32,000 nt of DNA. It comes from Pseudodesulfovibrio piezophilus C1TLV30 (GTDB lineage Bacteria > Desulfobacterota > Desulfovibrionia > Desulfovibrionales > Desulfovibrionaceae). The stretch is from contig NC_020409.1 of NCBI RefSeq assembly GCF_000341895.1, forward strand, positions 600,001 through 632,000. The letters are read 5' to 3'. The position numbers and the translations under genes are program-made. The notes beneath the pieces are model-generated. The model did no database searches. It had not been told where the DNA came from and saw only the letters and a program-made list of their open reading frames with translations. Below, in pieces: positions 6,254 through 27,011 of the stretch (position 1 is its first letter; each line of letters starts with the position of its first letter).

Positions 6254-6266
6254 CGAGGTTCATTCT

Positions 6267-8147: not shown

Positions 8148-8171
8148 CCCGGTTTAAAAAAGGAATCCATC

Positions 8172-8912
8172 ATGGGTAGACAAATAAAATTCGAGATATT
8201 CCGGTATAATCCCCAAAAAAAGGGGGATATCCCGCGTATGCAAACATACTCCCTTGACGAAACCCCGAATATGACCCTGTTCATAGCACTGAATAGACTA
8301 CGCGAAGAACAGGACCCGAGTCTTGTCTTCGACTTCTGTTGCAGAGCAGGAATATGTGGTGCATGCGCCATGGTTATCAACGGACGTCCAGGGCTGGCCT
8401 GTCAAACCAAAACCAAAGACCAACCAGGCCACATCATCCTTCACCCGCTTCCAGTGTACAAGCTGATAGGAGACCTTTCCGTCGACACCGGCGTCTGGTT
8501 CCGCACTATGTATGAAAAGACAGAATCCTGGATTCACACCAGGAAAGTCTTCGATCCAACTGCGGAAGAGGAACGCATGGACAACGCCATAGCTGAAGAC
8601 ATTTATGAGCTGGAGCGCTGTATAGAATGCGGTTGCTGCGTCTCGGCATGTGGAACAGCACGTCTTCGTGACGATTTCATGGGGGCAGCTGCTCTCAATC
8701 GAGTTGCCCGTTTTGTGGTGGATCCTCGAGATGAACGCACTGACAGAGAATATTATGAAGTCATTGGAAGTGATGAAGGAATATTCGGCTGCATGGGCCT
8801 GTTGGCCTGTGAAGATGTTTGCCCAAAAGGCTTGCCCTTGCAGAACCAACTGGGATTCCTTCGTCGTAAAATGGGTATTACGGCACTCAAAGACATATTT
8901 AAAAAGAAGTAA
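8172..8912 (+). CDS. frdB: Fumarate reductase iron-sulfur subunit
   Basis: Three Cys clusters are present: CCRAGICGACA for [2Fe-2S], CIECGCCVSAC for [4Fe-4S], and CMGLLACEDVCPKG for [3Fe-4S]. Confidence 0.95.
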   Translation: MGRQIKFEIFRYNPQKKGDIPRMQTYSLDETPNMTLFIALNRLREEQDPSLVFDFCCRAGICGACAMVINGRPGLACQTKTKDQPGHIILHPLPVYKLIGDLSVDTGVWFRTMYEKTESWIHTRKVFDPTAEEERMDNAIAEDIYELERCIECGCCVSACGTARLRDDFMGAAALNRVARFVVDPRDERTDREYYEVIGSDEGIFGCMGLLACEDVCPKGLPLQNQLGFLRRKMGITALKDIFKKK

Positions 8913-8914
8913 TT

Positions 8915-9751
8915 ATGCGCACTATCAATCCATCTGAAATCATTGATGCAGTGGCTTCCATGTGCATCAAGGCCAACACCGAACTTCCGGACGATGTCCG
9001 CGCCAAGCTCGAACAGGCCATGGCTGAGGAAACAAGTGCATCTGCCAAGGAAGTGCTTCGTCAATTACTGGAGAATGCAGACCTCTCCAAAGAGACTCTA
9101 CTGCCTTTGTGCCAAGACTGTGGACTTGCTGTCTACTTCGTTGAAATCGGAGATGAAGTTCGTATTGATGGCAATATCCGAGACGCGATCAATGAAGGTA
9201 CACGCAAAGGATATGCAGAAGGTTATCTTCGTAAATCCGCCTGCGACCCATTGACTCGTGTCAATACGGGAGATGGAACCCCGGCAGTCATCCACTATGA
9301 TTTTGTTCCTGGGGACAAGCTCAAAATCATATATATGGCCAAAGGCGGTGGAGCAGAAAATATGAGCCGCGCCACAATGCTCGCCCCAGCCCAAGGCTGG
9401 GAAGGCATCAAACAATTTGTCATCAACCGTGTAGCTGAAGCAGGTCCTAATCCATGCCCTCCCACTATTATAGGCATTGGAATAGGAGGAACATTCGATC
9501 ATGCGGCTAAAATAGCGAAGAAATCGTTAATACGTCGACTTGATGACACTCATCCTGACCCTGAAATCGCAGCCAAAGAAAAAGAACTCGAAGATTCTAT
9601 CAACAAATTGGGGATCGGACCCATGGGGCTTGGCGGCAAGACAACCGTTCTGAGCGTCAAACTGGCCATCGAACCCTGTCACTTGGCGAGTTTGCCACTT
9701 GCAGTCAATGTACAGTGTCACTCTCAGAGGCACGAGGAGGTCGAACTCTAA
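8915..9751 (+). CDS. fumA: Class I (Fe-S) fumarate hydratase, alpha subunit
   Basis: Signatures of the Fe-S hydro-lyase (tartrate/fumarate) alpha family are present: LCQDCGLAVYF, MAKGGGAENMS, IGIGIGGT. The gene context is frd plus malic enzyme. Confidence 0.85.
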   Translation: MRTINPSEIIDAVASMCIKANTELPDDVRAKLEQAMAEETSASAKEVLRQLLENADLSKETLLPLCQDCGLAVYFVEIGDEVRIDGNIRDAINEGTRKGYAEGYLRKSACDPLTRVNTGDGTPAVIHYDFVPGDKLKIIYMAKGGGAENMSRATMLAPAQGWEGIKQFVINRVAEAGPNPCPPTIIGIGIGGTFDHAAKIAKKSLIRRLDDTHPDPEIAAKEKELEDSINKLGIGPMGLGGKTTVLSVKLAIEPCHLASLPLAVNVQCHSQRHEEVEL

Positions 9752-10308
9752 TGGCTGAATACAAACTCACAACTCCATTGACGGATGAAGATATCAAACA
9801 ACTCAAAGCCGGAGATGTCGTGTTCTTGAGCGGATACATCTATTCCGCGCGAGATGCCGCTCACAAAAAACTCATAGATCTACTGGATGAAGATAAAGAA
9901 TTGCCATTCAAGCTGGAAGGCGCAGCAGTGTATTATGTCGGACCAAGTCCGGCTCCCCCTGGCCGACCAATCGGTGCTGCCGGTCCTACCACGAGCTACC
10001 GAATGGATTCCTATGCGCCAAGATTGCACAGCCTTGGACTGAAAGCGACCATTGGAAAAGGAAAGCGCAACGATGAAACCCGTCAAGCCATGCAGAATCA
10101 TACTGCAGTTTATTTTGGCGCAACGGGTGGAGCTGGTGCTCTTCTCTCGAATTCCATCGTCAAATCCACTGTTATTGCATTTGACGAACTCGGTCCCGAA
10201 GCTATTCGTGAGATGAAAGTCAAAGACTTTCCACTTCTTGTCATCAATGACTCTCATGGCGGGGAGCTTTATGCCGTCCCGGATCGCAAAGCTGCAGGCA
10301 TTGAATAA
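9751..10308 (+). CDS. fumB: Class I (Fe-S) fumarate hydratase, beta subunit
   Basis: Motifs are SGYIYSARDAAHKKL, VGPSPAPPGRPIGAAGPTTSYRMD and IGKGKR. I prefer ATG 9751, which has GAGGAGG at 9734-9740 and overlaps the alpha-subunit stop as TAATG, over the GTG at 9715 in the track. Confidence 0.85.
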   Translation: MAEYKLTTPLTDEDIKQLKAGDVVFLSGYIYSARDAAHKKLIDLLDEDKELPFKLEGAAVYYVGPSPAPPGRPIGAAGPTTSYRMDSYAPRLHSLGLKATIGKGKRNDETRQAMQNHTAVYFGATGGAGALLSNSIVKSTVIAFDELGPEAIREMKVKDFPLLVINDSHGGELYAVPDRKAAGIE

Positions 10309-10334
10309 CAAAATCTAACTACAAGGAGATAGAA

Positions 10335-11657
10335 ATGGCTTTATTTACCAAACAGGAAGCTCTCGATTACCACTCCATGGGGAGAAAGGGGAAAATCGAA
10401 GTTGTCCCAGTCAAACCTTGCGCAACACAAAAACACTTATCCATGGCATACAGCCCTGGTGTGGCTGAAGCCTGCCTTGAAATCGCTGAAGATGAGACAA
10501 AATCCTATGAGTATACTGCACGAGGCAATCTGGTTGCAGTTATTTCCAATGGAACAGCGGTTCTTGGATTGGGAAATATCGGCGCAGCAGCGGGCAAACC
10601 GGTTATGGAAGGCAAAGGTGTGCTCTTCAAGGTCTTTGCCGACGTTGACTGCTATGACATCAACCTCGATGTGACCGATCCTGACAAACTCATTGAAATT
10701 GCAAAATCAATGGAACCGACTTTTGGTGGTATCAATCTCGAAGATATCAAATCTCCGGAATGCTTCTACATTGAGGAGACTTTAAAAAAGGAAATGAACA
10801 TTCCTGTCTTCCATGACGATCAGCACGGCACAGCTATTGTGACTGCCGCAGGCATGATGAATGCCGTGGAAATTTCAGGAAAAAAAGCTCAGGACCTTCG
10901 GGTTGTCGTCTCAGGCGCAGGGGCCTCGGCCATTGCATGCACCAATCTATACCGAAACATGGGAGTCAAACCTGAAAATATTGCCATGTTTGATTCACGT
11001 GGACATATTAACAAGTCTCGCACTGACTTGAATAAATTCAAACAACAATATGCTACGGATATCGAGTATGGATCTCTTGCTGAAGCCATGGTTGGTGCGG
11101 ACTGCTTCCTCGGCTTATCTGTCAAGGACATGGTGTCCAAAGACATGGTCAAATCCATGAGTGACAATTGCCCGATCATATTTGCCTGCGCCAACCCTGA
11201 TCCGGAAATAACATACAACGACGCCAAGGAGGCCCGCCCGGATTGCATCATGGGCACAGGTCGCTCCGACTATCCAAATCAAGTCAACAATGTACTTGGA
11301 TTCCCTTTTATTTTCCGTGGAGCGCTTGATTGCGGAGCAACTGCCATTACGGAGGAAATGAAGCTAGCGGCAGCCCAAGCCCTTGCAGACCTGGCCAAGG
11401 AAGAGGCTCCTCAATCCGTATGCGATGCTTATGGCGTCGATAAACTTGAATTCGGTCGTGACTATGTCATCCCCAAAGCGCTTGACCTTCGTCTGATCGA
11501 ATATGTTTCCGTGGCAGTGGCCAAGGCCGCCATGGAGGCTGGCATTGCACGAAAGCAACTCAATCTTGATGAATATCGGAAAGAGTTGCGTCAACGCATT
11601 GCTGACTCCACGAAACGAGTGAGTTCCTTTGTGGATTCATACGACCTTGGGATTTAG
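10335..11657 (+). CDS. NAD(P)-dependent malic enzyme, short form without a PTA-like domain
   Basis: Motifs are [62 protein letters not shown] and [15 protein letters not shown]. The RBS AAGGAG precedes the start. Confidence 0.9.
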
Positions 11658-11778: not shown

Positions 11779-13320
11779 ATGAGTGCTCAAGCTGCAGAGA
11801 GCGGAAATGGCAAAATCATCGGGTTTATTTTAGGCCCCGTCATCTTTGTCTTAATGCTCATCATTCCGGCTCCGGAAGGCATGAAAGTCGAAGCATGGCG
11901 GGTAGCAGCCGTCACTGCTCTCATGGCCATCTGGTGGATCACCGAAGCGATTCCCATTCCTGCGACATCGCTCCTCCCTATCGCCATGTTCCCCCTGCTC
12001 GGGATCATGAAATCTGCGGCCGCGACCGCTCCTTACGCCAACCATCTTATTTATCTTTTCATGGGTGGTTTTTTCCTGGCTGTGACTATGGAACGATGGA
12101 ATCTGCACAGACGTGTCGCCCTCTACACTATCCGTGCAATAGGCACCAGCCCCGGACGAATGATCATGGGATTCATGGTCGCCACGGCCTTTCTGTCCAT
12201 GTGGGTCTCCAATACCGCGACCACAATGATGATGGTCCCTATCGGAATGGCTGTCATCCAACAGGCAACAGGCTTTGAATCCAGTGATCTCCGTTCCAGC
12301 ACCAATACCGGGCCGGAAGCGAACTTTGGAAAATGCCTCATGCTGGGTATCGCGTATGCAGCCTCCATGGGTGGAGTCGGCACTATCATTGGTACTCCAC
12401 CAAACACAGTCATGGCAGGTATGGTCGAAAAAATGTTTGGTGTTGAAATAGGATTCGGCCAATGGATGCTCTTCGGAGTTCCTCTTGCCACCATTATGGT
12501 CCTTTTGTCCTGGTTTATATTGACGAAATGGCTCTTCCCCATGGGAAGCATGCAAATTGCCGGTGGGGACAAGATTATTAATGATGAAGTCAAGAAACTT
12601 GGTCCCATGTCATCAGAAGAAAAGAAAATTGTAATCGTAGGCTGCTTTGTCGCCGTATTCTGGTTGGCACGTGGCTTTCTCAAAAAAGTTCCTTTCATCA
12701 TCGATGCCATGCCCCACTTCGGGTACATCCATGATGCAACAATCGGTATCCTTGGTGCCTTGATTCTGTTCGCTCTGCCTACAAACTTCAAAAAAGGTGA
12801 ATTCCTTCTGGATTGGAAAACAGCAGTCAAAATCCCTTGGGATGTCATCTTGCTCTTTGGTGGAGGTCTTGCCATTGCTAACGGTTTTGCAAAGACAGGA
12901 CTTGCCTCCTATATAGCTTCTCAACTTGGAGCTTTAGAAGGAACAAGTATTCTCATTTTTGTGGCTGTTGTTGTCTTGATCACTATCTTCCTGACGGAAA
13001 TAACTTCAAATACCGCTACGGCAACTCTGCTTGTCCCAATCATGGGAAGTGCAGCCATTGCCATGGGAGTCCATCCATACGCTACAATCGTCGGAGCTTG
13101 TGTCGCTGCATCATTTGCCTTCATGCTCCCGGTTGCCACCCCTCCAAATGCCGTTGTCTTCGGCAGTGGATGTGTTTCAATCAAACAAATGGCAAAAGCC
13201 GGTTTATGGTTGAATATCCTTGGAACCATTCTAATCACGGCATTTGTCGTATACTTCCTGCCCGTCATCTGGGGTGTAGACCTCAATGTCGTACCGGATT
13301 GGGCTGTCATGCCTAAATAA
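11779..13320 (+). CDS. DASS/SLC13-family anion:cation symporter, probably a C4-dicarboxylate transporter
   Basis: The 513-aa protein is polytopic. It has the two hairpin-tip motifs SNTATTMMMVPI and SNTATATLLVPI, plus GTPPNT and ATPPNA. It is the last gene of the frd-fum-mae operon. Confidence 0.85.
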   Translation: MSAQAAESGNGKIIGFILGPVIFVLMLIIPAPEGMKVEAWRVAAVTALMAIWWITEAIPIPATSLLPIAMFPLLGIMKSAAATAPYANHLIYLFMGGFFLAVTMERWNLHRRVALYTIRAIGTSPGRMIMGFMVATAFLSMWVSNTATTMMMVPIGMAVIQQATGFESSDLRSSTNTGPEANFGKCLMLGIAYAASMGGVGTIIGTPPNTVMAGMVEKMFGVEIGFGQWMLFGVPLATIMVLLSWFILTKWLFPMGSMQIAGGDKIINDEVKKLGPMSSEEKKIVIVGCFVAVFWLARGFLKKVPFIIDAMPHFGYIHDATIGILGALILFALPTNFKKGEFLLDWKTAVKIPWDVILLFGGGLAIANGFAKTGLASYIASQLGALEGTSILIFVAVVVLITIFLTEITSNTATATLLVPIMGSAAIAMGVHPYATIVGACVAASFAFMLPVATPPNAVVFGSGCVSIKQMAKAGLWLNILGTILITAFVVYFLPVIWGVDLNVVPDWAVMPK

Positions 13321-13327
13321 TATCCTG

Positions 13328-13357
13328 CCTACGGGCGACCAACCGGTCGCCCGTAGG
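13328..13357 (+). terminator. Hairpin terminator after the DASS transporter gene
   Basis: CCTACGGGCGACC pairs with GGTCGCCCGTAGG in a perfect 13-bp stem with a 4-nt loop (AACC). Only TT follows the stem. Confidence 0.6.
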
Positions 13358-13419
13358 TTCAGCCCCCGGTCATCAATTTTATTACTTGAGCTGCCGTAAT
13401 CTTACGGCGGAGAGGAAAG

Positions 13420-14184
13420 ATGCGCTCAAAATCGAAGATAATTCCGATCATATTGGTAGCTGTTCTTCTCTTGGTGGTAGCTATTTTCGGCTACGTTCAT
13501 CCAGGAAAAACACAACACATGCCAGTACGGATACTTTTTGAAAACAATGGGGGGAAAGTCATATTCTCCCACCTGATACACCACCGGGATTACAAAATAG
13601 ATTGTGCCACATGTCATCATGACAAAAAACAGAAACCTCTCTCACAAGATGACACTGCGTTACATTGTGGCTCCTGTCACCCGAATGAATTTAATGAAGA
13701 ATTCATTGCCAGTCACATGGATTCCTTTCCAGATGAAACATACTGTGTCCGATGCCATCATACTGAATTTGCCGAAGTTATCTTTAATCACGAAGAACAC
13801 AAAGAATATGCTGACGACTGCTCTGATTGTCACCATGGCAAAGAAATAGAACCCACCCCTCAGCGATGTTCTCACTGCCATAAGTCCCATGATATCAATG
13901 GACTGATCAGTATGCGACAAGCAGGACATCAAAGCTGTGCAAATTGTCATGAGGATATGTTTGAGACTGGATTATCAAGCTGCAAATCATGCCATGTCCA
14001 AGTGGATATGACCAAATATGAAGGAGACTATACATCCTGCAATTCATGCCATGAAGCCGAAGCACGAGAATTGGTTCTTCCACGTATGAATGCATTTCAT
14101 GATCAATGCCTCTCCTGTCACGAAAAAGAAGGAGCTGGCCCATATGGTCCCGACGATTGCAACAAATGCCACATTAGTAGGTAA
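13420..14184 (+). CDS. dhcA: Membrane-anchored decaheme cytochrome c heading the rnf operon (DhcA-like)
   Basis: There are ten CXXCH motifs in 254 aa: CATCH, CGSCH, CVRCH, CSDCH, CSHCH, CANCH, CKSCH, CNSCH, CLSCH, CNKCH. An N-terminal hydrophobic anchor or signal is present (IIPIILVAVLLLVVAIFGYV). The RBS GGAGAGG precedes the start. Confidence 0.9.
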   Translation: MRSKSKIIPIILVAVLLLVVAIFGYVHPGKTQHMPVRILFENNGGKVIFSHLIHHRDYKIDCATCHHDKKQKPLSQDDTALHCGSCHPNEFNEEFIASHMDSFPDETYCVRCHHTEFAEVIFNHEEHKEYADDCSDCHHGKEIEPTPQRCSHCHKSHDINGLISMRQAGHQSCANCHEDMFETGLSSCKSCHVQVDMTKYEGDYTSCNSCHEAEARELVLPRMNAFHDQCLSCHEKEGAGPYGPDDCNKCHISR

Positions 14185-14192
14185 TCAGAACA

Positions 14193-15299
14193 ATGAATAT
14201 CCAAGATATCCTTCCAATTAAACAGGCGGAATTCACCCTGATGCAATATTGTCCCCTGGTGACATGTGGGCAAACCGTCAAACGAGGGCAAAGGTTGGCG
14301 ACCTCTTCAATCCAAGGCATGGGTGATATCCATTCACCCGTGGCAGGGCGAGTCAGCCATCTTGATTCATTCCGTATCCGTATAACAGCCGAAGGTAACG
14401 AAGAAGTAGATTTTACTGATCTCAATAAATTCAAAGGACAGCAACTCTATAAAAAACTTCTTGAACTTGGAGCCGACATTCCTCCCATAGCCGAGGTCGA
14501 GACTCTTATCATCAATAGCGTTGATGCAGAAATTGGTGTTCTGACTCGTAAGGAACTTCTGGTTACGTCTCAAGCCCCTCTTGAATGTGGACTTGAAGTC
14601 ATTCAAACCCTCTACAAACCAGAACTGACTGTCATGGCAACACTCAAAGGCACATCAAATTCACTGGGAAACCTCCTCTGCGTCGAAATCTCGGACCAAT
14701 ACCCGGCAGGACTTGATCCCCTGGTAGCCTTAGCCGTAACCGGCATTGAATCACCAGAAAAGACACTCGTGGTTGACTTGGAAACGCTATTCCACATTGG
14801 CCGAATTATGGAAACCGGACTCCCTTTATTTGAAACAATGGTCACAATTGGTAAAGAAGCACACATTGTCCCTCTTGGCTTGGCAGTCGGTGACATTTTA
14901 GAACATTTTGGAGAAAAATTAGTTGATCACGACAGGATCGTCCTAGGAGGCGCTCTGCGCGGTGCAGCTGCGGCATCAGCGACGCAAGGAGTAGATCGAA
15001 AGACCAATGCCATTACACTTATTCGAACCCCTGTCCCAATCGCACTGGATGCGGCCTGTGTTGGGTGTGGAGAATGTGTCCGACACTGCCCCGCCCGTCT
15101 CGATCCTGCCATGATTACCAGCTATGCAGAATTTGGCCTCTATGAAAAAGCTGCCGAAGAATTTGTAAACACTTGTTTTGAATGTGGACTCTGTGGCTTT
15201 TTTTGCATCGCACACCGCCCCATGCTCCAGTATATACGCTTAGCAAAAAAGGAATTGGCCCTTGGTACAGTCAAATCCAGGGAGGAGGGAGCACTATGA
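14193..15299 (+). CDS. rnfC: RnfC-like subunit, short, with a degenerate nucleotide-binding region
   Basis: The RnfC N-terminal barrel motif GDIHSPVAGRV is present. The C-terminus has a 2x[4Fe-4S] region (CVGCGECVRHCP and CFECGLCGFFC). The gene sits before rnfD. Where canonical RnfC has GLGGAGFP and ECEPY, this protein has ELGADIPP and DAEIG. Confidence 0.8.
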   Translation: MNIQDILPIKQAEFTLMQYCPLVTCGQTVKRGQRLATSSIQGMGDIHSPVAGRVSHLDSFRIRITAEGNEEVDFTDLNKFKGQQLYKKLLELGADIPPIAEVETLIINSVDAEIGVLTRKELLVTSQAPLECGLEVIQTLYKPELTVMATLKGTSNSLGNLLCVEISDQYPAGLDPLVALAVTGIESPEKTLVVDLETLFHIGRIMETGLPLFETMVTIGKEAHIVPLGLAVGDILEHFGEKLVDHDRIVLGGALRGAAAASATQGVDRKTNAITLIRTPVPIALDAACVGCGECVRHCPARLDPAMITSYAEFGLYEKAAEEFVNTCFECGLCGFFCIAHRPMLQYIRLAKKELALGTVKSREEGAL

Positions 15300-16246
15300 A
15301 GCCAATTATCCCATTTCATCTGACAGTATCTGTCCCGCCCCATCGTCATTACGGCACTTCAATACGCGGCAGGATGTTTGCCATTCTACTGGCTATGCTT
15401 CCGGCAGCAACCATGGGGCTAGCCAACTATGGCATGCCAGCTCTTAGGGTCATGTGTCTTTCTATGAGTGCTGCAATTTTCACAGAAGCTCTCTGTCATT
15501 GGCTTATGGAAAGTAAAAGTGAACTTGAGAATCTCCATGCCTTTATCGTGGGATTATCCTTTGCATTCCTCTTACCGGCATCAGCACCTTGGTGGCTTGT
15601 CACTTTTGGAAGTGCCACTTCCATAATTCTCGGAAAAATGATTTTTGGCCCCCTCGGTGGAAGCCCTTTTTGTGCTCCTCTCATCGGATGGGCGGTTTGC
15701 CGAATCTCATGGCCTGCTTTCATGGATATTGATGCTTCCATGCTTTCTGCCGACCTGACATTCCCCCTGGCCCAACTCAAGGACTTCGGACTGAACTCGG
15801 TCATGATAACCGATACAAAACAACTTTTTCTGGGCAAACAGCTTGGGGGATTAGGTGCTGTTCAAATAGCCGGAATCTTGCTTGGTGGCATTATCCTCGT
15901 GGCTAAGAGGCATGTTTCATCCATCATTCCAATGGGGGTCATCGGCGGAGTCTGTATCACCGCTGGACTCTTCAACATGCTCAATCCAAACATTTACGCA
16001 ACACCCGGCTTCCACCTCCTGACCGGATCAACACTTTTCGGAGCCTTTTTCCTCGCAACCGATGGTTCATCCTCACCCAACAGACAAATCCCCATGCTCC
16101 TCTTCGGCTTACTCATCGGGATAATGATTGTTCTTATTCGAATTTATGGTTCATACCCGGATGGCGTCCCTTTTGCCATTTTAATAGCAAACCTTTTTAC
16201 TCCGGTTTTCGAGCGAATTCGCCCCCGGCCCTTTGGTGTGAGGTGA
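15296..16246 (+). CDS. rnfD: RnfD, polytopic membrane subunit
   Basis: ATG 15296 overlaps the rnfC stop as ATGA and is preceded by AGGGAGGAGGG. The N-terminus has SVPPHRH, and the remainder is multi-TM. The track start at 15182 lies inside rnfC. Confidence 0.85.
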   Translation: MKPIIPFHLTVSVPPHRHYGTSIRGRMFAILLAMLPAATMGLANYGMPALRVMCLSMSAAIFTEALCHWLMESKSELENLHAFIVGLSFAFLLPASAPWWLVTFGSATSIILGKMIFGPLGGSPFCAPLIGWAVCRISWPAFMDIDASMLSADLTFPLAQLKDFGLNSVMITDTKQLFLGKQLGGLGAVQIAGILLGGIILVAKRHVSSIIPMGVIGGVCITAGLFNMLNPNIYATPGFHLLTGSTLFGAFFLATDGSSSPNRQIPMLLFGLLIGIMIVLIRIYGSYPDGVPFAILIANLFTPVFERIRPRPFGVR

Positions 16247-16249
16247 CAT

Positions 16250-16825
16250 ATGAAAGAAATGATGAAAATGATGCTTGTTCTTTCTCTTATCTGTGGCTTT
16301 GCAGGGATTTCTCTTGCCGCACTGAAGGAGATCACCTCACCTGTAATCGAAGAGCAGGTACTGACCTTTGTTCAGGCTCCGGCAATTGAGTATGTGCTGA
16401 AGAGCCACGACAATGACCCCATAAAAGACCGAAAAAAATATTCTCTGAATACTCGAGTAGTGACAGTATTTCCAGGCATAAAGAATGGAATCCTCGAAAG
16501 CATAGCATTTGAAACTTCTGGCAAAGGATATGGCGGAAATATCGGTGTCATGGTTGGTTTTGATATCTCTACTCAAACTCTTTCAGGCATTGGCATCACA
16601 ACCCTGAAAGAAACTCCGGGCCTTGGTTCCCGTGTTGCCGAACATGGTTATACGACACAATTCAGAGGCCACCCAATCCAATCCATAGCTCTCAAAAAAA
16701 ATGGTGGAGATATAGACGCTGTAGCAGGGGCAACCATCTCGTCAACCGGCACAGTCGCTGCGGTTCAAGATGCAATATCTCTCTTTATGCAACTCAAAAC
16801 AGAACTTGCCGACGGCTGGTCCTAG
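16250..16825 (+). CDS. rnfG: RnfG, FMN-binding subunit
   Basis: It has an N-terminal anchor (MMLVLSLICGFAGISLAAL), an FMN_bind-type domain, and the flavinylation motif DAVAGATISSTG. Confidence 0.9.
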   Translation: MKEMMKMMLVLSLICGFAGISLAALKEITSPVIEEQVLTFVQAPAIEYVLKSHDNDPIKDRKKYSLNTRVVTVFPGIKNGILESIAFETSGKGYGGNIGVMVGFDISTQTLSGIGITTLKETPGLGSRVAEHGYTTQFRGHPIQSIALKKNGGDIDAVAGATISSTGTVAAVQDAISLFMQLKTELADGWS

Positions 16826-16854
16826 GCTGACAAATGCCTCATTCGGAGAAGACA

Positions 16855-17535
16855 ATGAATCAATTATGGAAAGAATTTTCCAAAGGACTCTGGAAAGATC
16901 TCCCCCCCTTCAAACTGGTCCTCGGCCTCTGTCCAGTCCTTGCTGTCACGAATACGACTCAAAATGGCCTTGGCATGGGGGTGGCTGTTATCTTTGTACT
17001 CACCCTCTCAAACCTCGTGGTTTCATTACTACGAAAGATAATTCCCTCGAAGGTCCGTATTGCCTGTTTTATTGCTATCTCCGCTTCGCTTGTCGTGGCG
17101 GTTGAACTTCTTATGCAAGCATTTGCTTATCCTCTCTACCAACAACTCGGCATCTTTGTTCCTTTGATAGTGGTAAATTGTATAATCCTCGGGCGAGCTG
17201 AAGCTTTTGCTTCCAAAAATTCCCCACTTATGGCCATGGCCGATGGCATGGGGATGGGGGTCGGATTCACCATGTCGCTCACGTTTCTCGGGGCTCTTCG
17301 TGAAATTCTTGGAACCGGAAAACTCTTTGGTACGTACGTTGCCTGGGGAGACTTCGAACCCGTCGGATTAATGGTCCAGGCACCTGGAGCTTTTGTCAGC
17401 CTCGGAATTCTACTCGCCTTGATGACGTTTGTTGAAAACATACAGCGAAAACGCAGAGGGTTAGCCGCAATAGAAGGTCCTACACACGATTGCGGAGCGT
17501 GCGGCGGATGTGGCAAAGCGTCAAACTGTTCATAG
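16855..17535 (+). CDS. rnfE: RnfE membrane subunit with a Cys-rich C-terminal tail
   Basis: Motifs are LGLCPVLAVT and VNCIILGRAEAFA. I prefer ATG 16855 (GGAGAAG RBS) over 16834. The tail reads THDCGACGGCGKASNCS. Confidence 0.85.
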   Translation: MNQLWKEFSKGLWKDLPPFKLVLGLCPVLAVTNTTQNGLGMGVAVIFVLTLSNLVVSLLRKIIPSKVRIACFIAISASLVVAVELLMQAFAYPLYQQLGIFVPLIVVNCIILGRAEAFASKNSPLMAMADGMGMGVGFTMSLTFLGALREILGTGKLFGTYVAWGDFEPVGLMVQAPGAFVSLGILLALMTFVENIQRKRRGLAAIEGPTHDCGACGGCGKASNCS

Positions 17536-17548
17536 TGGAGCATAAACA

Positions 17549-18124
17549 ATGCAAGATTACTTTCTTCTCTTTATTGGTGCAATGTTCGTCAACAACATTG
17601 TTCTGGCCCAATATCTCGGGAATTGTCCTTTCATAGGCACATCCAAAGAGTCAGGTGTTGCAATCGGCATGGGTGGAGCCGTTGTCTTTGTCGCAGTTAT
17701 GGCCACAGGGATTACATGGTTGGTTCAACACCATCTGCTTATCCCCTTTGGACTCGGTTATCTTCAAACATTGGCCTTTATTCTGGTTATTGCAGCATTA
17801 GTCCAATTTGTAGAAATGTTTCTCAAAAAAATGATTCCTCCTTTATACAAATCCCTAGGCATATTTTTACCTCTCATTACAACAAATTGTGCAGTCATGG
17901 GTATCGCTCTGATCTGTCAGCGAGAGGAATTCGGTCTGCTCCGATCCGTACTTTTCGCCTTTGCTTCCGGACTTGGCTTCATGCTCGCTCTGGTTCTTCT
18001 CGCTGGAATTCGTGAAAAACTGGCCGTTCGAAGACTCCCAGTATCCATGAGAGGAACGCCTATCGGTTTGATAATGGCAGGGCTGATGTCCCTGACTTTT
18101 TTCGCTTTCAAGGGAATGATTTAA
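17549..18124 (+). CDS. rnfA: RnfA membrane subunit
   Basis: Motifs are NNIVLAQYLGNCPFIG and ITTNCAVMGIAL. The 191-aa protein has six hydrophobic helices. Confidence 0.9.
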   Translation: MQDYFLLFIGAMFVNNIVLAQYLGNCPFIGTSKESGVAIGMGGAVVFVAVMATGITWLVQHHLLIPFGLGYLQTLAFILVIAALVQFVEMFLKKMIPPLYKSLGIFLPLITTNCAVMGIALICQREEFGLLRSVLFAFASGLGFMLALVLLAGIREKLAVRRLPVSMRGTPIGLIMAGLMSLTFFAFKGMI

Positions 18125-18181
18125 AATCAAAAAATTTGAAATACAGTAGAGCCGACACCATTCATCAGAGGAACTAATCAT

Positions 18182-20287
18182 ATGATATTAATATCAGGAC
18201 TCACTCTTTTCAGCATAGGTCTTGGAGCTGCTGCAATATTGGGTATAGCTTCGAAACTCCTCTACGTAAAAGAAGATCCACGGATTAATTTGATTGAAGA
18301 GTCCCTCCCCGGAGCCAATTGCGGTGGCTGTGGCTTCCCTGGGTGTTCAGGTGCAGCAGCAGCAATTGTGGCTGGCAAGGCTCCTGCGACAGTCTGTATT
18401 GTTGCCGACTCTGAAATGAGTCTGCTTGTTGCAGGAATTATGGGGCAGGAGGTTATTGAAAGAGAACCGGAACTCGCTATCCGGGATTGCTCAGGAGGAA
18501 TGCGTGCATCCGATTCCTTCCATTATGAAGGAGCACATGACTGCCGAGCCGCCCATCTCCTCTATGGTGGTTCAAAATCCTGTCCTGAAGGATGTCTCGG
18601 CCTGGGAACCTGTATGCGGGCCTGCCCTTTCGATGCTATCCAAATGAATGACCAGAATCTTCCAATCATTGATCCATTGGCATGCAAGGCATGTGGAAAC
18701 TGCGTTGACGCCTGCCCTCGTGGAGTTATTGGTGTAGCTGGAATCTCTGCTCGTCTGCTCCATCTCAACCTCACATCAGACTGTCTTGCCCCATGTCGCC
18801 AAAAATGCCCTGCACAAATAAATATTCCCAGATATATTGAACAGATAAAATCTGGTGATTACAATGGTGCGATTATGACTATCAAAGAGCGTAATCCTCT
18901 TCTTCTAACGTGTGGACGAGTTTGTCCCCGCCCCTGCGAGACTGAATGCCGCCGTCAATATGTGGATGAGACCGTCGGTATAAACATGCTCAAAAGGTTT
19001 GTGGCAGATAGGGAACTTCATACAGGAAAACACCTCCCTATTTCCTGCGCCAAAGATACCGGGAAAAAAGTCGCCATCATCGGCGGAGGTCCAGCAGGCC
19101 TCTCATGCGCTTATTTTCTACGTCGACTGGGGCATCAACCAACCATTTTTGAAGCAATGCCAAAACTTGGTGGGCAGACCCGCTATGGCATTCCGGAATA
19201 TCGCCTTCCTAAAGCAGATCTTGATTGGGAGATTCAAGGCATACTCGATCTTGGGATCGAAGCGAAAATGAATACAAAATTCGGTGTTGATTTTACCATT
19301 GAGACACTCAAAAAAGACAACTTTGAGACTATCTTCATTGGTATTGGAGCTTGGCAAGCTTCAGGTATGTATGCAGAAGGAGAAGACCTGAATGGTGTCA
19401 TGGGCGGTATCGAATTTCTCACTGCACACGCCATGGGACAAAAGATTGAAACAGGAGAACATGTCATCGTCGTAGGAGGAGGAAATACCGCTATTGATGC
19501 TGCGAGGACCTGTATTCGTCTCGGGGCACAGGTCACTCTTATGTATCGACGAACTCGTGCTGAAATGCCTGCTGATATGGAAGAAATTATTGGAGCAGAA
19601 GACGAAGGAGTCCAGTTCAAGTTTTTGGCAGCCCCTGCGCGAGTCATTGGAGATGAAAAGCACCACGCCACTCATTTGGAGTATTATGAGATGGAACTGG
19701 GAGAACCAGATGAATCTGGTCGGCGAAAACCTATCAAGAAAGAAGGCTCTGAACAACGTATGTGTGCAAATCTGATTATCCCGGCCATAGGACAAAAACC
19801 AGATCTCAAGTGTCTTTATGAAAATGAAGAAGAAGGAAGCTGCCTTTTGGAAACAACCCGATGGCAAACAATTGTTGCAGATTCCGAGACTTTCGAAACA
19901 GCTATACCAGGAGTCTTTACTGCCGGAGATGTCTATACTGGACCTGATTTGGTCATATCGGCAATTGGCGATGGCAGAAAAGCCGCACGAGCCATGCACT
20001 ACCATATGACAAAGGGCATTATTCCTCTCTCCGACCAGACACAAACAACAATGATCCCATATACGTTATTCAAGGAAGTTAGTGTTAAAGAAAAGAAAGA
20101 ACGAGCGACTCTTCCTCTCCTTTGTTATGGCGAGGAAAGAAATTGTACATTCAATGAGGTAGAAGGGACTCTTTCGGAGAGACAAGCGCAAAAAGAGGCA
20201 GATCGCTGCCTTCGCTGCGGCTTGCTCTGCTATGATGGCGACTCTGCACAGGAAACTCAGGGAGTTTTGAACACATTTGAAGAATAA
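18182..20287 (+). CDS. rnfB: RnfB fused to a GltD/NfnB-like FAD- and NAD(P)H-dependent oxidoreductase module
   Basis: Residues 1-195 are RnfB: a TM helix, NCGGCGFPGC, and a 2x[4Fe-4S] region (CPEGCLGLGTCMRACP and CKACGNCVDACP). Residues ~196-610 are GltD-like: CRQKCPAQINIPRYI...CGRVCPRPCETEC, the FAD fold VAIIGGGPAGLSCA, the NAD(P)H fold VVGGGNTAIDAAR followed by MYRRTRAEMPA, LGEPDESGRRKP, and GVFTAGDV. The C-terminus has EADRCLRCGLLC. Confidence 0.85.
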   Translation: MILISGLTLFSIGLGAAAILGIASKLLYVKEDPRINLIEESLPGANCGGCGFPGCSGAAAAIVAGKAPATVCIVADSEMSLLVAGIMGQEVIEREPELAIRDCSGGMRASDSFHYEGAHDCRAAHLLYGGSKSCPEGCLGLGTCMRACPFDAIQMNDQNLPIIDPLACKACGNCVDACPRGVIGVAGISARLLHLNLTSDCLAPCRQKCPAQINIPRYIEQIKSGDYNGAIMTIKERNPLLLTCGRVCPRPCETECRRQYVDETVGINMLKRFVADRELHTGKHLPISCAKDTGKKVAIIGGGPAGLSCAYFLRRLGHQPTIFEAMPKLGGQTRYGIPEYRLPKADLDWEIQGILDLGIEAKMNTKFGVDFTIETLKKDNFETIFIGIGAWQASGMYAEGEDLNGVMGGIEFLTAHAMGQKIETGEHVIVVGGGNTAIDAARTCIRLGAQVTLMYRRTRAEMPADMEEIIGAEDEGVQFKFLAAPARVIGDEKHHATHLEYYEMELGEPDESGRRKPIKKEGSEQRMCANLIIPAIGQKPDLKCLYENEEEGSCLLETTRWQTIVADSETFETAIPGVFTAGDVYTGPDLVISAIGDGRKAARAMHYHMTKGIIPLSDQTQTTMIPYTLFKEVSVKEKKERATLPLLCYGEERNCTFNEVEGTLSERQAQKEADRCLRCGLLCYDGDSAQETQGVLNTFEE

Positions 20288-20358
20288 GGACAAAATATGC
20301 TTTCCCAGAAAGTAACATGACGCAGTATTCCCTCGACAACAATACGGCGCTCATGTCC

Positions 20359-20386
20359 GGGAGGGTTTTGCTGCGAAAACCCTCCC
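20359..20386 (+). terminator. Hairpin terminator after the rnf operon
   Basis: GGGAGGGTTTT pairs with AAAACCCTCCC in a perfect 11-bp stem with a 6-nt loop. The downstream T-tract is weak. Confidence 0.55.
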
Positions 20387-20458
20387 GCTTCCGGGAAAAG
20401 AAAAAGGACTCCTACGATGTTTCAAGGTAATAATATCAAGACCACACCATAAACAATG

Positions 20459-20486
20459 TTGACCATCAATACTATACGAGTATCTT
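20459..20486 (+). promoter_or_regulatory. Possible sigma-70-type promoter for ackA-por
   Basis: The pattern is TTGACC (20459-20464), N16, TATCTT (20481-20486), about 50 nt upstream of the ackA ATG. This is a pattern match only. Confidence 0.3.
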
Positions 20487-20538
20487 GGCACCCTGTCTCC
20501 TGTCACACACTTGGATACAGGCAAAAAGGATTCCTGTT

Positions 20539-21738
20539 ATGAACATTCTCGTTATCAATTGCGGCAGTTCTTCATTGAAATACCAGCTTCGAAATATAAA
20601 CACCCAGAGAGTCATGGCGAGCGGCGTGGTGGAACGGATAGGTGAGTCCATGGGCCAAATCACACAAAGATCTTTTCCAGACAAATGGCCTGATACCAAG
20701 GATACGGAAGAATTGCCCATTCTCAATCACGAGGCTGCGATGAAGCTTATGGTTTCAAAACTCACCAATGGAGTTATCCAATCCCCTCATGAAATCGACG
20801 CAATAGGACATAGAGTTGTTCAGGGGGGTGAATCTTTCTCTCACCCAGTATTGGTCGATGAAAATGTCATGAATACGATCAAAGATAATATCCCACTCGC
20901 CCCCCTTCACAACCCTGCCAACCTCATAGGCCTTGAACAGGCAATGATCCTGTTCCCCGAAACACCAAATGTTGCAGTATTTGATACCGAATTCCATCAA
21001 ACACTTCCAAGGCATGCCTATATGTATCCTGTGCCGAAGATATTTTATGAACAGTTCAAGGTACGCAAATACGGCTTTCATGGCACTTCACATAAATATG
21101 TTAGTAAAACAGCATCAGTCTTTATCGGACAAAAAATTGAAGAGACCAGTCTCATTACTGTGCATCTTGGTAATGGCTGCTCCATGGCTGCCATAAAAAA
21201 TGGTAAATGCATTGAGACTTCTATGGGCTTGACTCCGTTGGCTGGCCTCATGATGGGGACTCGATGTGGAGATATTGACCCGGCTTTTCATATTTTTCTT
21301 GCAAAAAACAAAGGATTACCCCTCTCCGAGATTGATATATTACTCAATAAATCAAGTGGATTATTAGGAATATGTAGAAAGAACGACATGCGTGACATCC
21401 ATGAAGCCCGGCTTCACGGTGACGACGATGCACAGCTTGCTTTCGAGATGTTTACCTACCGGGTCAAGGCAACCATCGGTGCCTATCTTGCGATCCTCGG
21501 ATCGGTGAACGCCATTGTTTTCACTGCTGGCATCGGAGAAAATGATCCTGATGTCAGGTCTATGGCATGTGATGGTTTAGAGAATTTCGGTATCAATATT
21601 GACCCCACAAAAAATAATGAAAAAACCGCCGAGGCACGGTATATTAATACTGAACAGAGTCGGATCAAAGTTCTCGTGGTCCCCACCAACGAGGAATTAG
21701 AAATCGCGAAAGCCACGGCAGAAGTCGTCAATGACTAA
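20539..21738 (+). CDS. ackA: Acetate kinase
   Basis: Motifs are MNILVINCGSSSLKYQL, IGHRVVQGG, FDTEFHQTLP, YGFHGTSH, HLGNGCS, GIGEND and NEELEIA. The start is taken at ATG 20539, not the track start at 20485. Confidence 0.95.
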   Translation: MNILVINCGSSSLKYQLRNINTQRVMASGVVERIGESMGQITQRSFPDKWPDTKDTEELPILNHEAAMKLMVSKLTNGVIQSPHEIDAIGHRVVQGGESFSHPVLVDENVMNTIKDNIPLAPLHNPANLIGLEQAMILFPETPNVAVFDTEFHQTLPRHAYMYPVPKIFYEQFKVRKYGFHGTSHKYVSKTASVFIGQKIEETSLITVHLGNGCSMAAIKNGKCIETSMGLTPLAGLMMGTRCGDIDPAFHIFLAKNKGLPLSEIDILLNKSSGLLGICRKNDMRDIHEARLHGDDDAQLAFEMFTYRVKATIGAYLAILGSVNAIVFTAGIGENDPDVRSMACDGLENFGINIDPTKNNEKTAEARYINTEQSRIKVLVVPTNEELEIAKATAEVVND

Positions 21739-21770
21739 GGGCGTAATCCCCAGAATATATACGTAATTGA

Positions 21771-25394
<3,624 letters not shown>

Positions 25395-25682: not shown

Positions 25683-26027
25683 TTAGTTAATGGTATTAAC
25701 AGCACACGCCTGAACTTCAGTGTACATGAAGTTTTGAACGATCATGCCTTCCACCTGCACCTCATTCTTTTCATTGACAGCCTGTTGTATTCCAGCATCA
25801 TTCACATAAAGCAGCAATTCGCCTGTATTGTCTGCAAACAGAAACTCATTGTCCTTAATTTGGCGAACAAAATGCCCATTCAATACAACACTGGTGTCAA
25901 TGCCAGAAACCTTTGCTTCCGCAACAGATGTAGCCTTGTATGGCCCAGCGGCATAAGATTCCTGGGATGAAAAAATGAATGCCGATATCATAAGAAACAG
26001 CACAAAAAATATTCCAGAAGTTTTCAT
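25683..26027 (-). CDS. Periplasmic OB-fold stress protein, YgiW/BOF family
   Basis: The signal peptide is MKTSGIFFVLFLMISAFIFSSQESYAA. The mature part follows the E. coli YgiW pattern (TSVAEAK..VVLNGHFVRQIKDNEFLFADNTGELLLYV...VQVEGMI). The start is taken at ATG 26027, not 26102. Confidence 0.75.
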   Translation of the reverse strand: MKTSGIFFVLFLMISAFIFSSQESYAAGPYKATSVAEAKVSGIDTSVVLNGHFVRQIKDNEFLFADNTGELLLYVNDAGIQQAVNEKNEVQVEGMIVQNFMYTEVQACAVNTIN

Positions 26028-26294
26028 TGTATTATCCTCAAAATTTGAATTGTCTCTTTTAATCTGCCAGGACTTTCCTGACTCACGTCTAAACGATAAC
26101 ACATCTTAATCTTTTATCCAGATTTTTTTTCATGCTTAACATATTGGAATAACAGAATATTATAATATATTCTTTATTTTGACTGATTAGTCAATCAAAA
26201 AAATATCTTTAGTCACCTTCCTATGACAATCCAATTGAGAAATACCTGCACCAGAGCAAAACACATTTCAATAACAAATTTTCTTGCCCTCCCC

Positions 26295-26355: not shown

Positions 26356-26811
26356 TTAGTGCTTATGCTCAGGGTAATACTCAAGAAGAGCTTTGACGTA
26401 TCCCTCAAGAGCATCCACTGGCTCTATTGAAGCATTTTGCTTGGCCTTCATGGCTCCGACTATAACGGCATGATGCTTCTTTAAACGTTCAACATAATCT
26501 TTCTGATCCGCCTTGACTCGTTGAGTCAGGAAATAATCAGAAATGGTGCTGATAATTTTTTGAGCATGTATTTCTTTATTATCAACCCAACGAACAAACT
26601 GCTGACGAGACTGGATATCTGTTTTATCGACCAACTCCTGAAGCATGGTTACTGCTTTTCGTATAGTAGCAACATCTTCCAACAGAGCTTCTACGCGAGC
26701 ATTGTCATCGTAAATACCACAAGGAACTTGGCAATGAGCTAAGGCTTGACTCGGCAGCACAAGCAAAATCGCTATAAAAATTATGAAACTAAGACTCTTG
26801 AATTGTTTCAT
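26356..26811 (-). CDS. sodN: Nickel superoxide dismutase precursor with a Sec-type signal peptide
   Basis: The Ni-hook HCQVPCGIYD (consensus HCxxPCGxY) directly follows the signal-peptide-like sequence MKQFKSLSFIIFIAILLVLPSQALA. Downstream helices resemble Streptomyces SodN (KEIHAQKIISTISDYF). The RBS AAGGAG precedes ATG 26811. Confidence 0.85.
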   Translation of the reverse strand: MKQFKSLSFIIFIAILLVLPSQALAHCQVPCGIYDDNARVEALLEDVATIRKAVTMLQELVDKTDIQSRQQFVRWVDNKEIHAQKIISTISDYFLTQRVKADQKDYVERLKKHHAVIVGAMKAKQNASIEPVDALEGYVKALLEYYPEHKH

Positions 26812-27011
26812 TAAACTTCTCCTTGTACTCAACAGGAGCACGCTTTTTGTTGGACCGTACACATGCACAGCCTATGGAATTCCAACTTACTCTATATAAA
26901 AGATTCCAAAACACGTCTAGTAGCCGAAAAAATCTTCTCCTCAGCTCTGATTTTTCGTATGCTACTTCAATAACTTTAAACGATACCTTACAGTATTAAA
27001 ATGGATACTCA

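Follow-up and report, generated by a model that had tools for sequence, protein, structure and literature searches.

Models of the energy metabolism of sulfate-reducing bacteria assign a central role to the Rnf complex, which is assumed to couple the oxidation of ferredoxin to the reduction of NAD+. An operon of Pseudodesulfovibrio piezophilus C1TLV30 raises the question of which redox partners are connected by an Rnf complex whose composition departs from the textbook form. The stretch of DNA analysed here, henceforth the window, comprises 32,000 nucleotides (nt) of contig NC_020409.1 (positions 600,001 to 632,000); all coordinates refer to the window, and the loci of relatives are labelled L001 onward, each in its own numbering. 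Positions 13420-20287 hold seven genes on the plus strand, dhcA-rnfCDGEA-rnfB::gltD, encoding a multiheme cytochrome, an Rnf complex and, as an extension of RnfB, a flavoprotein module. A first-pass annotation of the sequence had suggested that the operon specifies a rewired Rnf complex that connects NAD(P)H and/or ferredoxin with periplasmic hemes. The anatomy behind this suggestion stands, and of all readings the cofactor map best supports the one that links NAD(P)H with periplasmic hemes, which is also partly anticipated in print. With moderate confidence, we propose that the operon encodes a Desulfovibrionaceae-type cytochrome-associated Rnf that is run 'open-loop': NADPH would enter at RnfB::GltD, RnfA/E and RnfG would constitute the pump, and the electrons would leave to DhcA.

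Cofactor sites of the dhcA-rnf operon

The operon consists of the following genes and domains.

13420-14184, plus strand: dhcA, decaheme c-type cytochrome of the c3/c7 family (254 residues)
14193-15299, plus strand: rnfC-like gene (368 residues), RnfC/NqrA fold with two [4Fe-4S] motifs
15296-16246, plus strand: rnfD (316 residues), PF03116 with an E-value of 1.4e-83
16250-16825, plus strand: rnfG (191 residues), periplasmic flavin mononucleotide (FMN) subunit, NF045876 (RnfG_DVU2794)
16834-17535, plus strand: rnfE (233 residues), [2Fe-2S] ligand cysteines C33 and C116
17549-18124, plus strand: rnfA (191 residues), TIGR01943 with 252 bits (over cutoff), ligand cysteines C26 and C114
18182-20287, plus strand: rnfB::gltD (701 residues), RnfB N-terminal domain and NfnB/GltD-type module
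18182-18766, plus strand: RnfB N-terminal domain (residues 1-195), with a transmembrane helix, a PF04060 Fe-S domain and one 2x[4Fe-4S] ferredoxin domain
18767-20287, plus strand: NfnB/GltD-type module (residues 196-701), in-frame fusion of Fer4_20 and Pyr_redox_2 domains

Successive genes are separated by 8, -4, 3, 8, 13 and 57 nt, in agreement with the earlier description of one operon with short gaps or overlaps. Homologues of all six Rnf subunits are recognised in this single operon by Pfam and NCBIfam models, with D, G, E and A scoring over curated cutoffs. The E-values of the subunit identifications range from 1e-16 to 1e-142, and the identifications are therefore not due to chance. A longer open reading frame (ORF) for rnfD with its start at 15182 was rejected, since homologues and the JGI gene call favour 15296. 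Long ORFs on the minus strand within the operon (e.g. 19361-20044) are regarded as shadow ORFs, none of which is called as a gene in the JGI annotation.

RnfC and RnfD depart from canonical Rnf at their flavin sites. RnfC had been described as lacking recognisable FMN/NADH motifs, and the alignments bear this out. Compared to E. coli RsxC, the protein is missing the 12 residues 'AGLGGAGFPTGV', that is, the NuoF-type FMN/NADH glycine loop (deletion site at approximately 14463-14489), and the 'ECEPY' of RsxC is changed to 'DAEIG' (14514-14537). A Pfam scan returns no match of the window's RnfC to Complex1_51K (PF01512) or SLBB; the control protein, E. coli RsxC, obtains 165.7 bits with PF01512 across profile positions 1-149, and the RnfC proteins of Desulfovibrio piger and D. 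porci reach 27-28 bits, under the cutoff, across positions 27-137. On TIGR01945, the window's RnfC obtains 129 bits against a cutoff of 246 bits, and its alignment with the RnfC chains of A. woodii, A. vinelandii and C. tetanomorphum is confined to regions other than the NADH/FMN loop. The protein retains both CxxCxxCxxxC motifs (C289 and C328 onward; CVGCGECVRHC and CFECGLCGFFC). An AlphaFold2 (AF2) model of the protein has a pLDDT (predicted local distance difference test) of 92.6, and a Foldseek search with this model gives template modelling (TM) scores of 0.77-0.78 to RnfC and of 0.73-0.75 to the cofactor-less NqrA.

The loss of a threonine in RnfD is a fourth departure from textbook Rnf, beyond the three listed in the first-pass annotation (cytochrome, degenerate RnfC, extended RnfB). 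In canonical RnfD this residue binds FMN covalently (T153 in C. tetanomorphum, T156 in A. woodii; A. woodii structure in PMC11889175). According to an alignment with RnfD chains from the Protein Data Bank (PDB), the position is occupied by Phe156 in the window ('LTFPL', codon 15761). The riboflavin-ligand position of RnfD (N123 in A. woodii) was also tried as a marker and rejected, as it varies between N, C and S and tracks the fusion poorly.

The core subunits RnfG, RnfE and RnfA are retained with their cofactor sites. RnfG matches NF045876 over its full length with 290 bits (cutoff 205 bits), and its flavinylation motif AGAT (Thr162, codon 16733) is intact and aligns with the [S/T]GA[S/T] motif of E. 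coli RsxG. The four ligands of the membrane [2Fe-2S] cluster are present as C33 and C116 of RnfE together with C26 and C114 of RnfA (reference residues from PMC11889175). In addition, RnfE ends in a cysteine-rich C-terminal tail, HDCGACGGCGKASNCS (17485-17532), which may form an extra metal or Fe-S site. A tail with at least three cysteines is found in every complete RnfE of the Desulfovibrionaceae-type clade; E. coli RsxE and the RnfE proteins of the distant loci L083 and L088 do not have it.

The FAD (flavin adenine dinucleotide)/NAD(P)H module that had been noticed on RnfB proves to be a true in-frame fusion. Residues 13-184 of RnfB::GltD match residues 16-188 of A. woodii RnfB with 163 bits (PF04060, 44 bits), and the C-terminal module matches PF14691 (Fer4_20, 78 bits) and PF07992 (Pyr_redox_2, 108 bits). 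The closest solved relatives of residues 191-684 are Nfn-ABC of C. saccharolyticus (9bov_A, 427 bits), NfnABC of T. sibiricus (9n5u_A, 409 bits) and StnC of S. ovata (8oh5_C, 394 bits); NfnB (5jca_L) aligns to the module with 294 bits. No match to an FNR-type domain was obtained for RnfB::GltD with Pfam, NCBIfam or the PDB comparison. The module carries motifs for 2x[4Fe-4S] (CLAPC...), FAD (GGGPAG, 19082) and NADPH (GGGNTAID, 19475; YRR, 19544) as well as a C-terminal CxxCxxxC. In 48 full-length fused homologues GGGPAG, GGGNTA..D, YRR...MPA and all Fe-S cysteines are invariant. Full-length relatives with 57-84% identity form more than 100 clusters, labelled 'FAD-dependent oxidoreductase', which include sequences from Pseudodesulfovibrio (P. 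piezophilus), Maridesulfovibrio (M. hydrothermalis), Desulfocurvibacter africanus and D. inopinatus; the nearest Pseudodesulfovibrio homologues are 79-84% identical.

DhcA, the first product of the operon, has exactly 10 CXXCH motifs, as expected for the decaheme cytochrome named in the first-pass annotation, and matches PF02085 (1.7e-19) as well as PF14522. A single hydrophobic segment resembling a transmembrane helix at its N-terminus (residues 7-25) indicates that the protein is probably anchored on the periplasmic face of the membrane. We note that public gene calls can miss dhcA: in a JGI dataset (3300009849; L082, 8359-8589) a 76-residue ORF on the opposite strand is called instead. Decaheme genes could therefore be under-counted in annotation-based surveys.

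Co-variation of the cytochrome and the lost sites, and distribution of the fusion

A scan of GTDB species genomes yielded 280 relatives, of which 80 loci were kept and annotated by phmmer with the window proteins as queries. The closest relatives of RnfC are found in Pseudodesulfovibrio (56-65% identity). A cytochrome ORF lies directly 5' of rnfC and in the same orientation in 79 of the 80 loci, the sequence of the one exception beginning inside rnfC; in 71 of the 80 the upstream cytochrome has exactly ten CXXCH motifs. The NuoF-type glycine loop occurs in none of the 81 RnfC proteins of this close set, irrespective of whether a strict or a loose pattern is used, and both FeS motifs of RnfC occur in all 81. 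The position of the FMN threonine of RnfD is D, Y, A, N or R in the 69 readable related loci and F in the window, and is never T or S. The flavinylation motif of RnfG is retained in 71 of 73 sequences, and the [2Fe-2S] cysteines of RnfA and RnfE in 68 of 69-70 relatives (68/69 for RnfA).

The association extends to distant relatives. An exhaustive HMMER search of 1.84 billion representatives returned 85 clusters with E <= 1e-30, and the canonical RnfC loop is present in one of the top 150 sequences. Eleven distant representatives were looked up, ten without the loop and one with a canonical loop; seven of the former have usable upstream sequence. Six of these seven follow a c3-type cytochrome. 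The seventh (P0422) has a loop that is substituted and not deleted, and no cytochrome is encoded within 846 nt. The threonine of RnfD is missing in all four distant lineages that were aligned. Cytochrome, loop-less RnfC and threonine-less RnfD co-vary tightly.

The same does not hold for the fusion. In a comparison of 68 operons (67 fetched loci and the window's own), RnfB is fused in 25, from Pseudodesulfovibrio, Maridesulfovibrio and some metagenome-assembled genomes (MAGs), and plain in 43, from Desulfovibrio piger, D. falkowii, Bilophila, Mailhella and a Syntrophobacteraceae MAG. The expectation that all three traits of the first-pass annotation go together across genomes is thus borne out for the cytochrome and the degenerate RnfC (79/80 close and 6/7 distant loci) and fails for the fusion (25/68). 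The sampled relatives with plain RnfB (D. piger, Bilophila, Mailhella) share the deletion of the RnfC loop, the loss of the RnfD threonine and the cysteine tail of RnfE. Two further features follow the state of RnfB: a terminal ferredoxin-like domain is present in 43/43 plain and missing in 25/25 fused proteins, and an apbE gene is located 3' of the rnf operon in 39/43 plain versus 1/24 fused cases. The window's operon does not have apbE/rnfF as its last gene, and rnfB is followed by acetate kinase. In a neighbour-joining tree of the core subunits (RnfD, G, E and A; 902 columns; E. coli as outgroup) the fused state is monophyletic and requires a single change under parsimony. The fusion is accordingly placed by the tree as a single, probably later gain that is nested within the cytochrome-associated family.

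Several individual loci deserve mention. Locus L083 (Logan SRR28370466, GC content 33%; 2924-10971) combines tetraheme and octaheme cytochromes with a loop-less RnfC (30% identical) and a threonine-less RnfD; it also has a colinear RnfB::GltD with 50% identity across 682 residues. As a locus this distant carries it, the fusion either predates the Desulfovibrionaceae or moved horizontally. Two further distant loci show a cytochrome c3-rnfCDGEA arrangement: in L088 (3564-8142) rnfB is not the next gene and the following gene is on the opposite strand, and in L089 (4543-9072) the contig stops just past rnfA. Several Pseudodesulfovibrio genomes harbor two fused dhcA-rnfCDGEA-rnfB::gltD operons (L003/L010, L007/L015, L008/L018). 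The window's operon belongs to the paralogue clade L002-L009, and of the two paralogues only its orthologue resides in a frd-fum-malic enzyme-DASS ... ack-por cluster. The other paralogue (L018, 13349-14224; also L010, L016 and L023) has an insert of 0.5-0.9 kb between rnfE and rnfA, which encodes one or two small proteins with a signal peptide (e.g. L018, 13851-14378, 175 residues).

Electron path and competing explanations

The cofactor map divides the canonical electron path into two halves. By sequence, the front half is intact, comprising the Fe-S domains of RnfB, the RnfA/E cysteines and the RnfG threonine. The back half has lost both of its flavin sites, namely the covalent-FMN threonine of RnfD and the FMN/NADH loop of RnfC. 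At the entry, the ferredoxin-docking end of RnfB seems to have been swapped for a putative NADPH dehydrogenase module of the NfnB/GltD type (FAD, 2[4Fe-4S]). In the Rnf complex of A. woodii, the reduced [2Fe2S] cluster of RnfA/E attracts Na+, and the passage of the electron to the FMN of RnfG frees Na+ on the outside; RnfD is merely an electron wire to RnfC and NAD+ (PMC11889175).

In the open-loop operation that we propose, NADPH, most plausibly supplied by the product of a malic-enzyme-like gene two genes upstream, would be oxidised at the FAD of the fused module, and the Fe-S chain would pass the electrons to the RnfA/E cluster, from which they would reach the FMN of RnfG in the periplasm. 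The step from RnfA/E to RnfG is the one that carries Na+ outward in A. woodii Rnf. From RnfG the electrons would exit to DhcA and the periplasmic cytochrome c pool, with no return via RnfD and RnfC to NAD+, and this pool could deliver them to menaquinone and fumarate reductase or to the complexes of sulfate reduction. The family would have kept the pump half, with the return wire dismantled and a periplasmic cytochrome as the exit. Such a logic would parallel that of Na+-NQR and would have been reached independently, by means of a different flavoprotein and with a cytochrome in place of a quinone as exit. NQR itself is derived from Rnf, with RnfB giving way to a flavoprotein for NADH input and NqrA being stripped of its cofactors (PMC12174285, PMC11889175).

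Physiological data on D. alaskensis provide a supportive context for this proposal. In strain G20 the oxidation of malate yields pyruvate and NADPH, and Rnf as well as NfnAB-2 matter on malate and fumarate; Price et al. describe the route from NAD(P)H into respiration as a long-standing mystery (PMC4215793). Attempts to detect ferredoxin:NAD+ activity in D. alaskensis vesicles were unsuccessful (PMC4841214). If the open-loop reading is true, these bacteria possess an NADPH:cytochrome c oxidoreductase that builds up a sodium- or proton-motive force, which would naturally mirror the way in which NQR evolved from Rnf. Flux and energetic models of Desulfovibrionaceae on malate, fumarate, H2 and formate would then need revision. 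More tentatively, with somewhat less confidence than for the operon itself, we extend the proposal to the whole cytochrome-associated family, including the Desulfovibrio enzymes that models usually depict as ferredoxin:NAD+ oxidoreductases: all of these may instead be open-loop ion pumps to periplasmic cytochromes, with ferredoxin (plain RnfB) or NADPH (fused RnfB) as the donor. The fusion may then represent a second, independent NQR-like invention of a nicotinamide-driven pump from an Rnf ancestor, as well as the missing route by which NADPH reaches the respiratory chain in these bacteria.

Several points weigh against the open-loop proposal. It is built on sequence comparison. In D. alaskensis G20, which has a plain RnfB, transposon mutants of dhcA have almost no fitness defect under conditions where rnf mutants fail, and DhcA is therefore not established as an obligatory partner. 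The [4Fe-4S] motifs of RnfC, invariant in 81/81 proteins, are odd for a dead-end subunit; the proposal does not account for them, for the cysteine tail of RnfE or for the absent dhcA phenotype in G20. A missing threonine in RnfD is no proof that a non-covalent flavin is lost as well. The specificity of the module for NADPH is suggested by homology only, namely by approximately 50% identity to the NADPH-using StnC and NfnABC and by the YRR motif. Electron transfer from NADPH (~-320 mV) to low-potential c3-type hemes has little driving force unless DhcA or its acceptors are more positive. The AF2 model of RnfB::GltD (pLDDT 70.8, Fe-S regions below 50) is uninformative with respect to inter-domain electron-transfer distances. 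Finally, the genes of the model organisms (Dde_0581/0582, DVU2792/2793) are outside of our sample, as a profile search with RnfC of the plain clade gave mostly unnamed sequences as well as gut Desulfovibrio and Bilophila.

The alternative that survives best, which we nevertheless consider unlikely, is a conventional Rnf with relocated sites. The nicotinamide site would now reside on RnfB::GltD and ferredoxin or flavodoxin would dock at the clusters of RnfC, resulting in a reversible ferredoxin:NAD(P)+ oxidoreductase in which DhcA is accessory or regulatory. This reading agrees with the invariant FeS motifs of RnfC and with the dispensability of dhcA in G20, where growth on several donors that generate reduced ferredoxin requires rnf; moreover, the gene for pyruvate:ferredoxin oxidoreductase (PFOR), which reduces ferredoxin, lies 1.5 kb downstream. 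It conflicts with the direction of the pump. In canonical Rnf, RnfB is the entry point of the low-potential donor, and Na+ exits together with the electron via RnfA/E. If ferredoxin docked at RnfC and NADP+ at RnfB, the pump would therefore run backwards in the exergonic direction. In addition, the FMN threonine of RnfD that is needed for the wire from RnfG to RnfC is missing throughout, and the retention of the cytochrome in 79/80 close and 6/7 distant loci argues for an integral function.

A reversed electron flow has to be weighed as well and is, in our view, less probable still. Here, electrons from periplasmic H2 or formate would reach RnfG via cytochrome c3 and DhcA, and ion influx through RnfA/E would drive the reduction of NADP+ at RnfB::GltD for biosynthesis. 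The window's copy and its orthologues are set among genes for the oxidation of dicarboxylates and the reduction of fumarate, including one for a malic enzyme that produces NADPH; this setting argues for a surplus of NADPH and not for a demand, and dhcA mutants of G20 do grow on H2 and formate. In favour of inward flow, Rnf is reversible, D. alaskensis needs it for growth on H2 and formate, and DhcA was first proposed as an electron acceptor from hydrogenases. Price et al. know of no other means for Desulfovibrio to hold the NADPH/NADP+ ratio high (PMC4215793).

We regard it as improbable that the fusion makes the complex a bifurcating or confurcating enzyme, in which an NfnB-like FAD distributes the two electrons of NADPH to the low-potential Fe-S chain and to another acceptor, for instance the clusters of RnfC. 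The module's closest solved relatives do belong to the bifurcating NfnAB, NfnABC and StnABC, RnfC and RnfB are firmly associated in Rnf structures, and the otherwise orphan clusters of RnfC would obtain a role. The operon, however, contains no gene for an NfnA-like or other high-potential partner, and GltD and DPD use the same module without bifurcation. Finally, it is barely conceivable that the operon is a decaying paralogue of a 'main' rnf operon, as the Pseudodesulfovibrio genomes with two dhcA-rnf operons and the several missing canonical cofactor motifs might suggest: the seven reading frames are intact and tightly packed, the motif losses are common to both paralogues and to single-copy genomes, and conservation (other cofactor motifs invariant across 48-81 homologues, the fusion 79-84% identical to the nearest Pseudodesulfovibrio proteins) effectively rules out pseudogenisation.

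Returning to the open-loop proposal, four points are added here: the family-wide loss of both flavin sites in the back half, the co-variation of this loss with the cytochrome, the single origin of the RnfB fusion, and the tight embedding of the operon in an NADPH-generating dicarboxylate cluster. Because of these four points together, an open-loop, NQR-like NADPH:cytochrome pump is a concrete and testable proposal.

Genomic setting and known systems

The features surrounding the operon are listed in the following.

1-1955, plus strand: MFS::ApbE fusion (flavin transferase), PF07690 and PF02424, 5' end cut by the window edge
2148-3923: dCache histidine kinase (Pfam and NCBIfam matches)
3927-5276: NtrC-type regulator (Pfam and NCBIfam matches)
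5392-5407, plus strand: sigma-54 -24/-12 element TGGCAC-N5-TTGCT, 5' of frdC, the only zero-mismatch match in the window
5609-8912, plus strand: frdCAB
8915-10308, plus strand: class I fumarase
10335-11657, plus strand: NADP-malic-enzyme-like gene, best NCBIfam model PRK12861 (NADP-dependent malic enzyme, 543 bits)
11779-13320, plus strand: DASS dicarboxylate transporter
13327-13358, plus strand: 14-bp GC-rich hairpin without U-tail, just 3' of the stop codon of the DASS transporter
13391-13410, plus strand: 8-bp hairpin adjoining the ribosome-binding site of dhcA
20358-20387, plus strand: 12-bp GC-rich hairpin without U-tail, 70 nt past the stop codon of rnfB::gltD
20539-21738, plus strand: acetate kinase (ack)
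21780-25394, plus strand: PFOR (por)

The fumarate reductase operon and the PFOR gene, which the first-pass annotation had placed immediately upstream and downstream, respectively, are found on these sides; fumarase, malic enzyme and the DASS transporter intervene in the former case and acetate kinase in the latter. The upstream gene order, from the sigma-54 regulator to the DASS transporter, is conserved at the orthologous operons in L002, L003, L005, L007, L008 and L012, and ack-por follows the orthologous operon in L002, L007, L008 and L009. The layout of kinase, regulator and sigma-54 element resembles a DctB/DctD-type regulon for C4-dicarboxylates that drives frd, fum, malic enzyme and DASS, and possibly dhcA-rnf. 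In D. piger (L046 and L054, approximately 16878-18861, minus strand) a plain rnf-apbE operon is followed, at a distance of about 1 kb, by a convergent malic enzyme gene. The neighbourhood of Rnf and malic enzyme is therefore not restricted to the fused type.

The MFS::ApbE gene is present at the start of the window, as noted before, 11 kb upstream of the rnf operon. Its frame is open to base 1, with approximately 105 N-terminal residues missing, and the product is 45% identical to a 767-residue homologue in L006 (16536-18839), to which it aligns from residue 107 of the latter. In L006 this homologue lies 0.5 kb 3' of a fused-type rnf operon. At the other end, past PFOR, a stretch with 37% GC holds genes for a BOF (OB-fold) protein (25683-26102, minus strand) and a nickel superoxide dismutase (26356-26868, minus strand), the latter an oxygen-defence gene in a presumed anaerobic sulfate reducer.

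The hairpins at the borders of the operon may delimit it. The RNA fold of 13318-13425 has an energy of -46.5 kcal/mol (z = -4.7), and the two hairpins 5' of dhcA may be where the dhcA-rnf unit begins or where its transcript is processed. The 3' arm of the hairpin at 13391-13410 overlaps the start of the Shine-Dalgarno sequence of dhcA (GGAGAGG), and this hairpin might modulate the translation of dhcA. At the other border, the fold of 20285-20420 has an energy of -45.7 kcal/mol (z = -4.3), and the hairpin at 20358-20387 is probably the 3' end of the unit. Scans of 13200-21900 for sigma-70 promoters and terminators gave nothing interpretable at the operon borders, and an Rfam scan of the window gave zero matches. 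Rnf in Desulfovibrio is regulated by Rex; a search for Rex operators returned matches at chance level only, none of them near rnf.

Among known systems, the DhcA-RnfCDGEABF operon of Desulfovibrio (D. alaskensis G20 Dde_0580-0587; D. vulgaris DVU2791-2797 family) shares with the window a decaheme gene in first position, the order CDGEAB and an RnfG of the DVU2794 type. In the window, by contrast, RnfB is fused to a GltD-type flavoprotein and is without the terminal ferredoxin domain, apbE/rnfF does not follow, and the operon is located within a C4-dicarboxylate cluster. The link of DhcA to periplasmic cytochromes is credited to Pereira 2011 in PMC4287179 and PMC4841214. A comparative study, PMC11434368 (2024), reports an 'FAD-dependent oxidoreductase' in place of rnfB in numerous Desulfovibrionaceae, for the most part marine; it draws the analogy to NQR and states that a 10-heme CbcC-like cytochrome, drawn on the cytoplasmic side, always accompanies rnf. 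These operons are of the same gene cluster type as the window's. The window's operon thus belongs to an already catalogued type (DhcA link in 2011, replacement of rnfB in 2024). The 2024 study describes a loss of rnfB, whereas the window has an in-frame fusion that keeps the transmembrane helix of RnfB, PF04060 and one ferredoxin domain; in the passages returned by a term search, it is silent on the cofactor sites of RnfC and RnfD. Literature searches for an RnfB-GltD fusion or an RnfC without NADH site in sulfate reducers surfaced only PMC11434368, and no paper was found that describes a deleted RnfC loop or a missing RnfD threonine in cytochrome-associated Rnf, Pereira 2011 being known second-hand in both cases. 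The family-wide losses in RnfC and RnfD seem to be undescribed in the literature.

Canonical Rnf complexes (A. woodii, C. tetanomorphum, A. vinelandii; PDB 9eri, 7zc6, 8ahx) have six homologous subunits, with RnfC at a TM score of 0.77-0.78. Relative to these, the window is without the FMN/NADH loop of RnfC, the equivalent of T156 in RnfD and the distal ferredoxin domain of RnfB, and has gained a cytochrome and an NADPH module. The latter corresponds to the modules of NfnB, GltD, StnC and NfnABC (PDB 5jca, 2vdc, 8oh5, 9bov, 9n5u): its 500 residues at the C-terminus can be aligned to these over the whole length, and the FAD, NADPH and 2[4Fe-4S] motifs are kept. It is joined to a membrane-anchored RnfB and does not partner NfnA, GltB or HydBC-like subunits. 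The MmcA-RnfCDGEABX operon of Methanosarcina acetivorans likewise starts with a gene for a multiheme c-type cytochrome, and its complex is not a NAD+ reducer, passing electrons from ferredoxin to methanophenazine or extracellular acceptors. Compared by description, it differs in that the cofactor sites of RnfB, C, D and G are reported as conserved and that it has no flavoprotein fusion.

In Na+-NQR, as in the window's complex, a flavoprotein NAD(P)H dehydrogenase is tethered by a transmembrane helix on the RnfB side, the RnfC/NqrA subunit has no FMN/NADH site, the core of RnfA/E type is conserved, and the periplasmic subunit is flavinylated. The two are nevertheless distinct: Nqr equivalog models score far under their cutoffs on the window proteins, the input module is of the NfnB/GltD type (FAD and 2[4Fe-4S]) and not FNR-like with a [2Fe-2S] cluster, and RnfC retains two [4Fe-4S] clusters where NqrA has none. 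Furthermore, RnfD is without the FMN threonine that NqrB keeps, and the proposed exit is a periplasmic cytochrome in place of a quinone.

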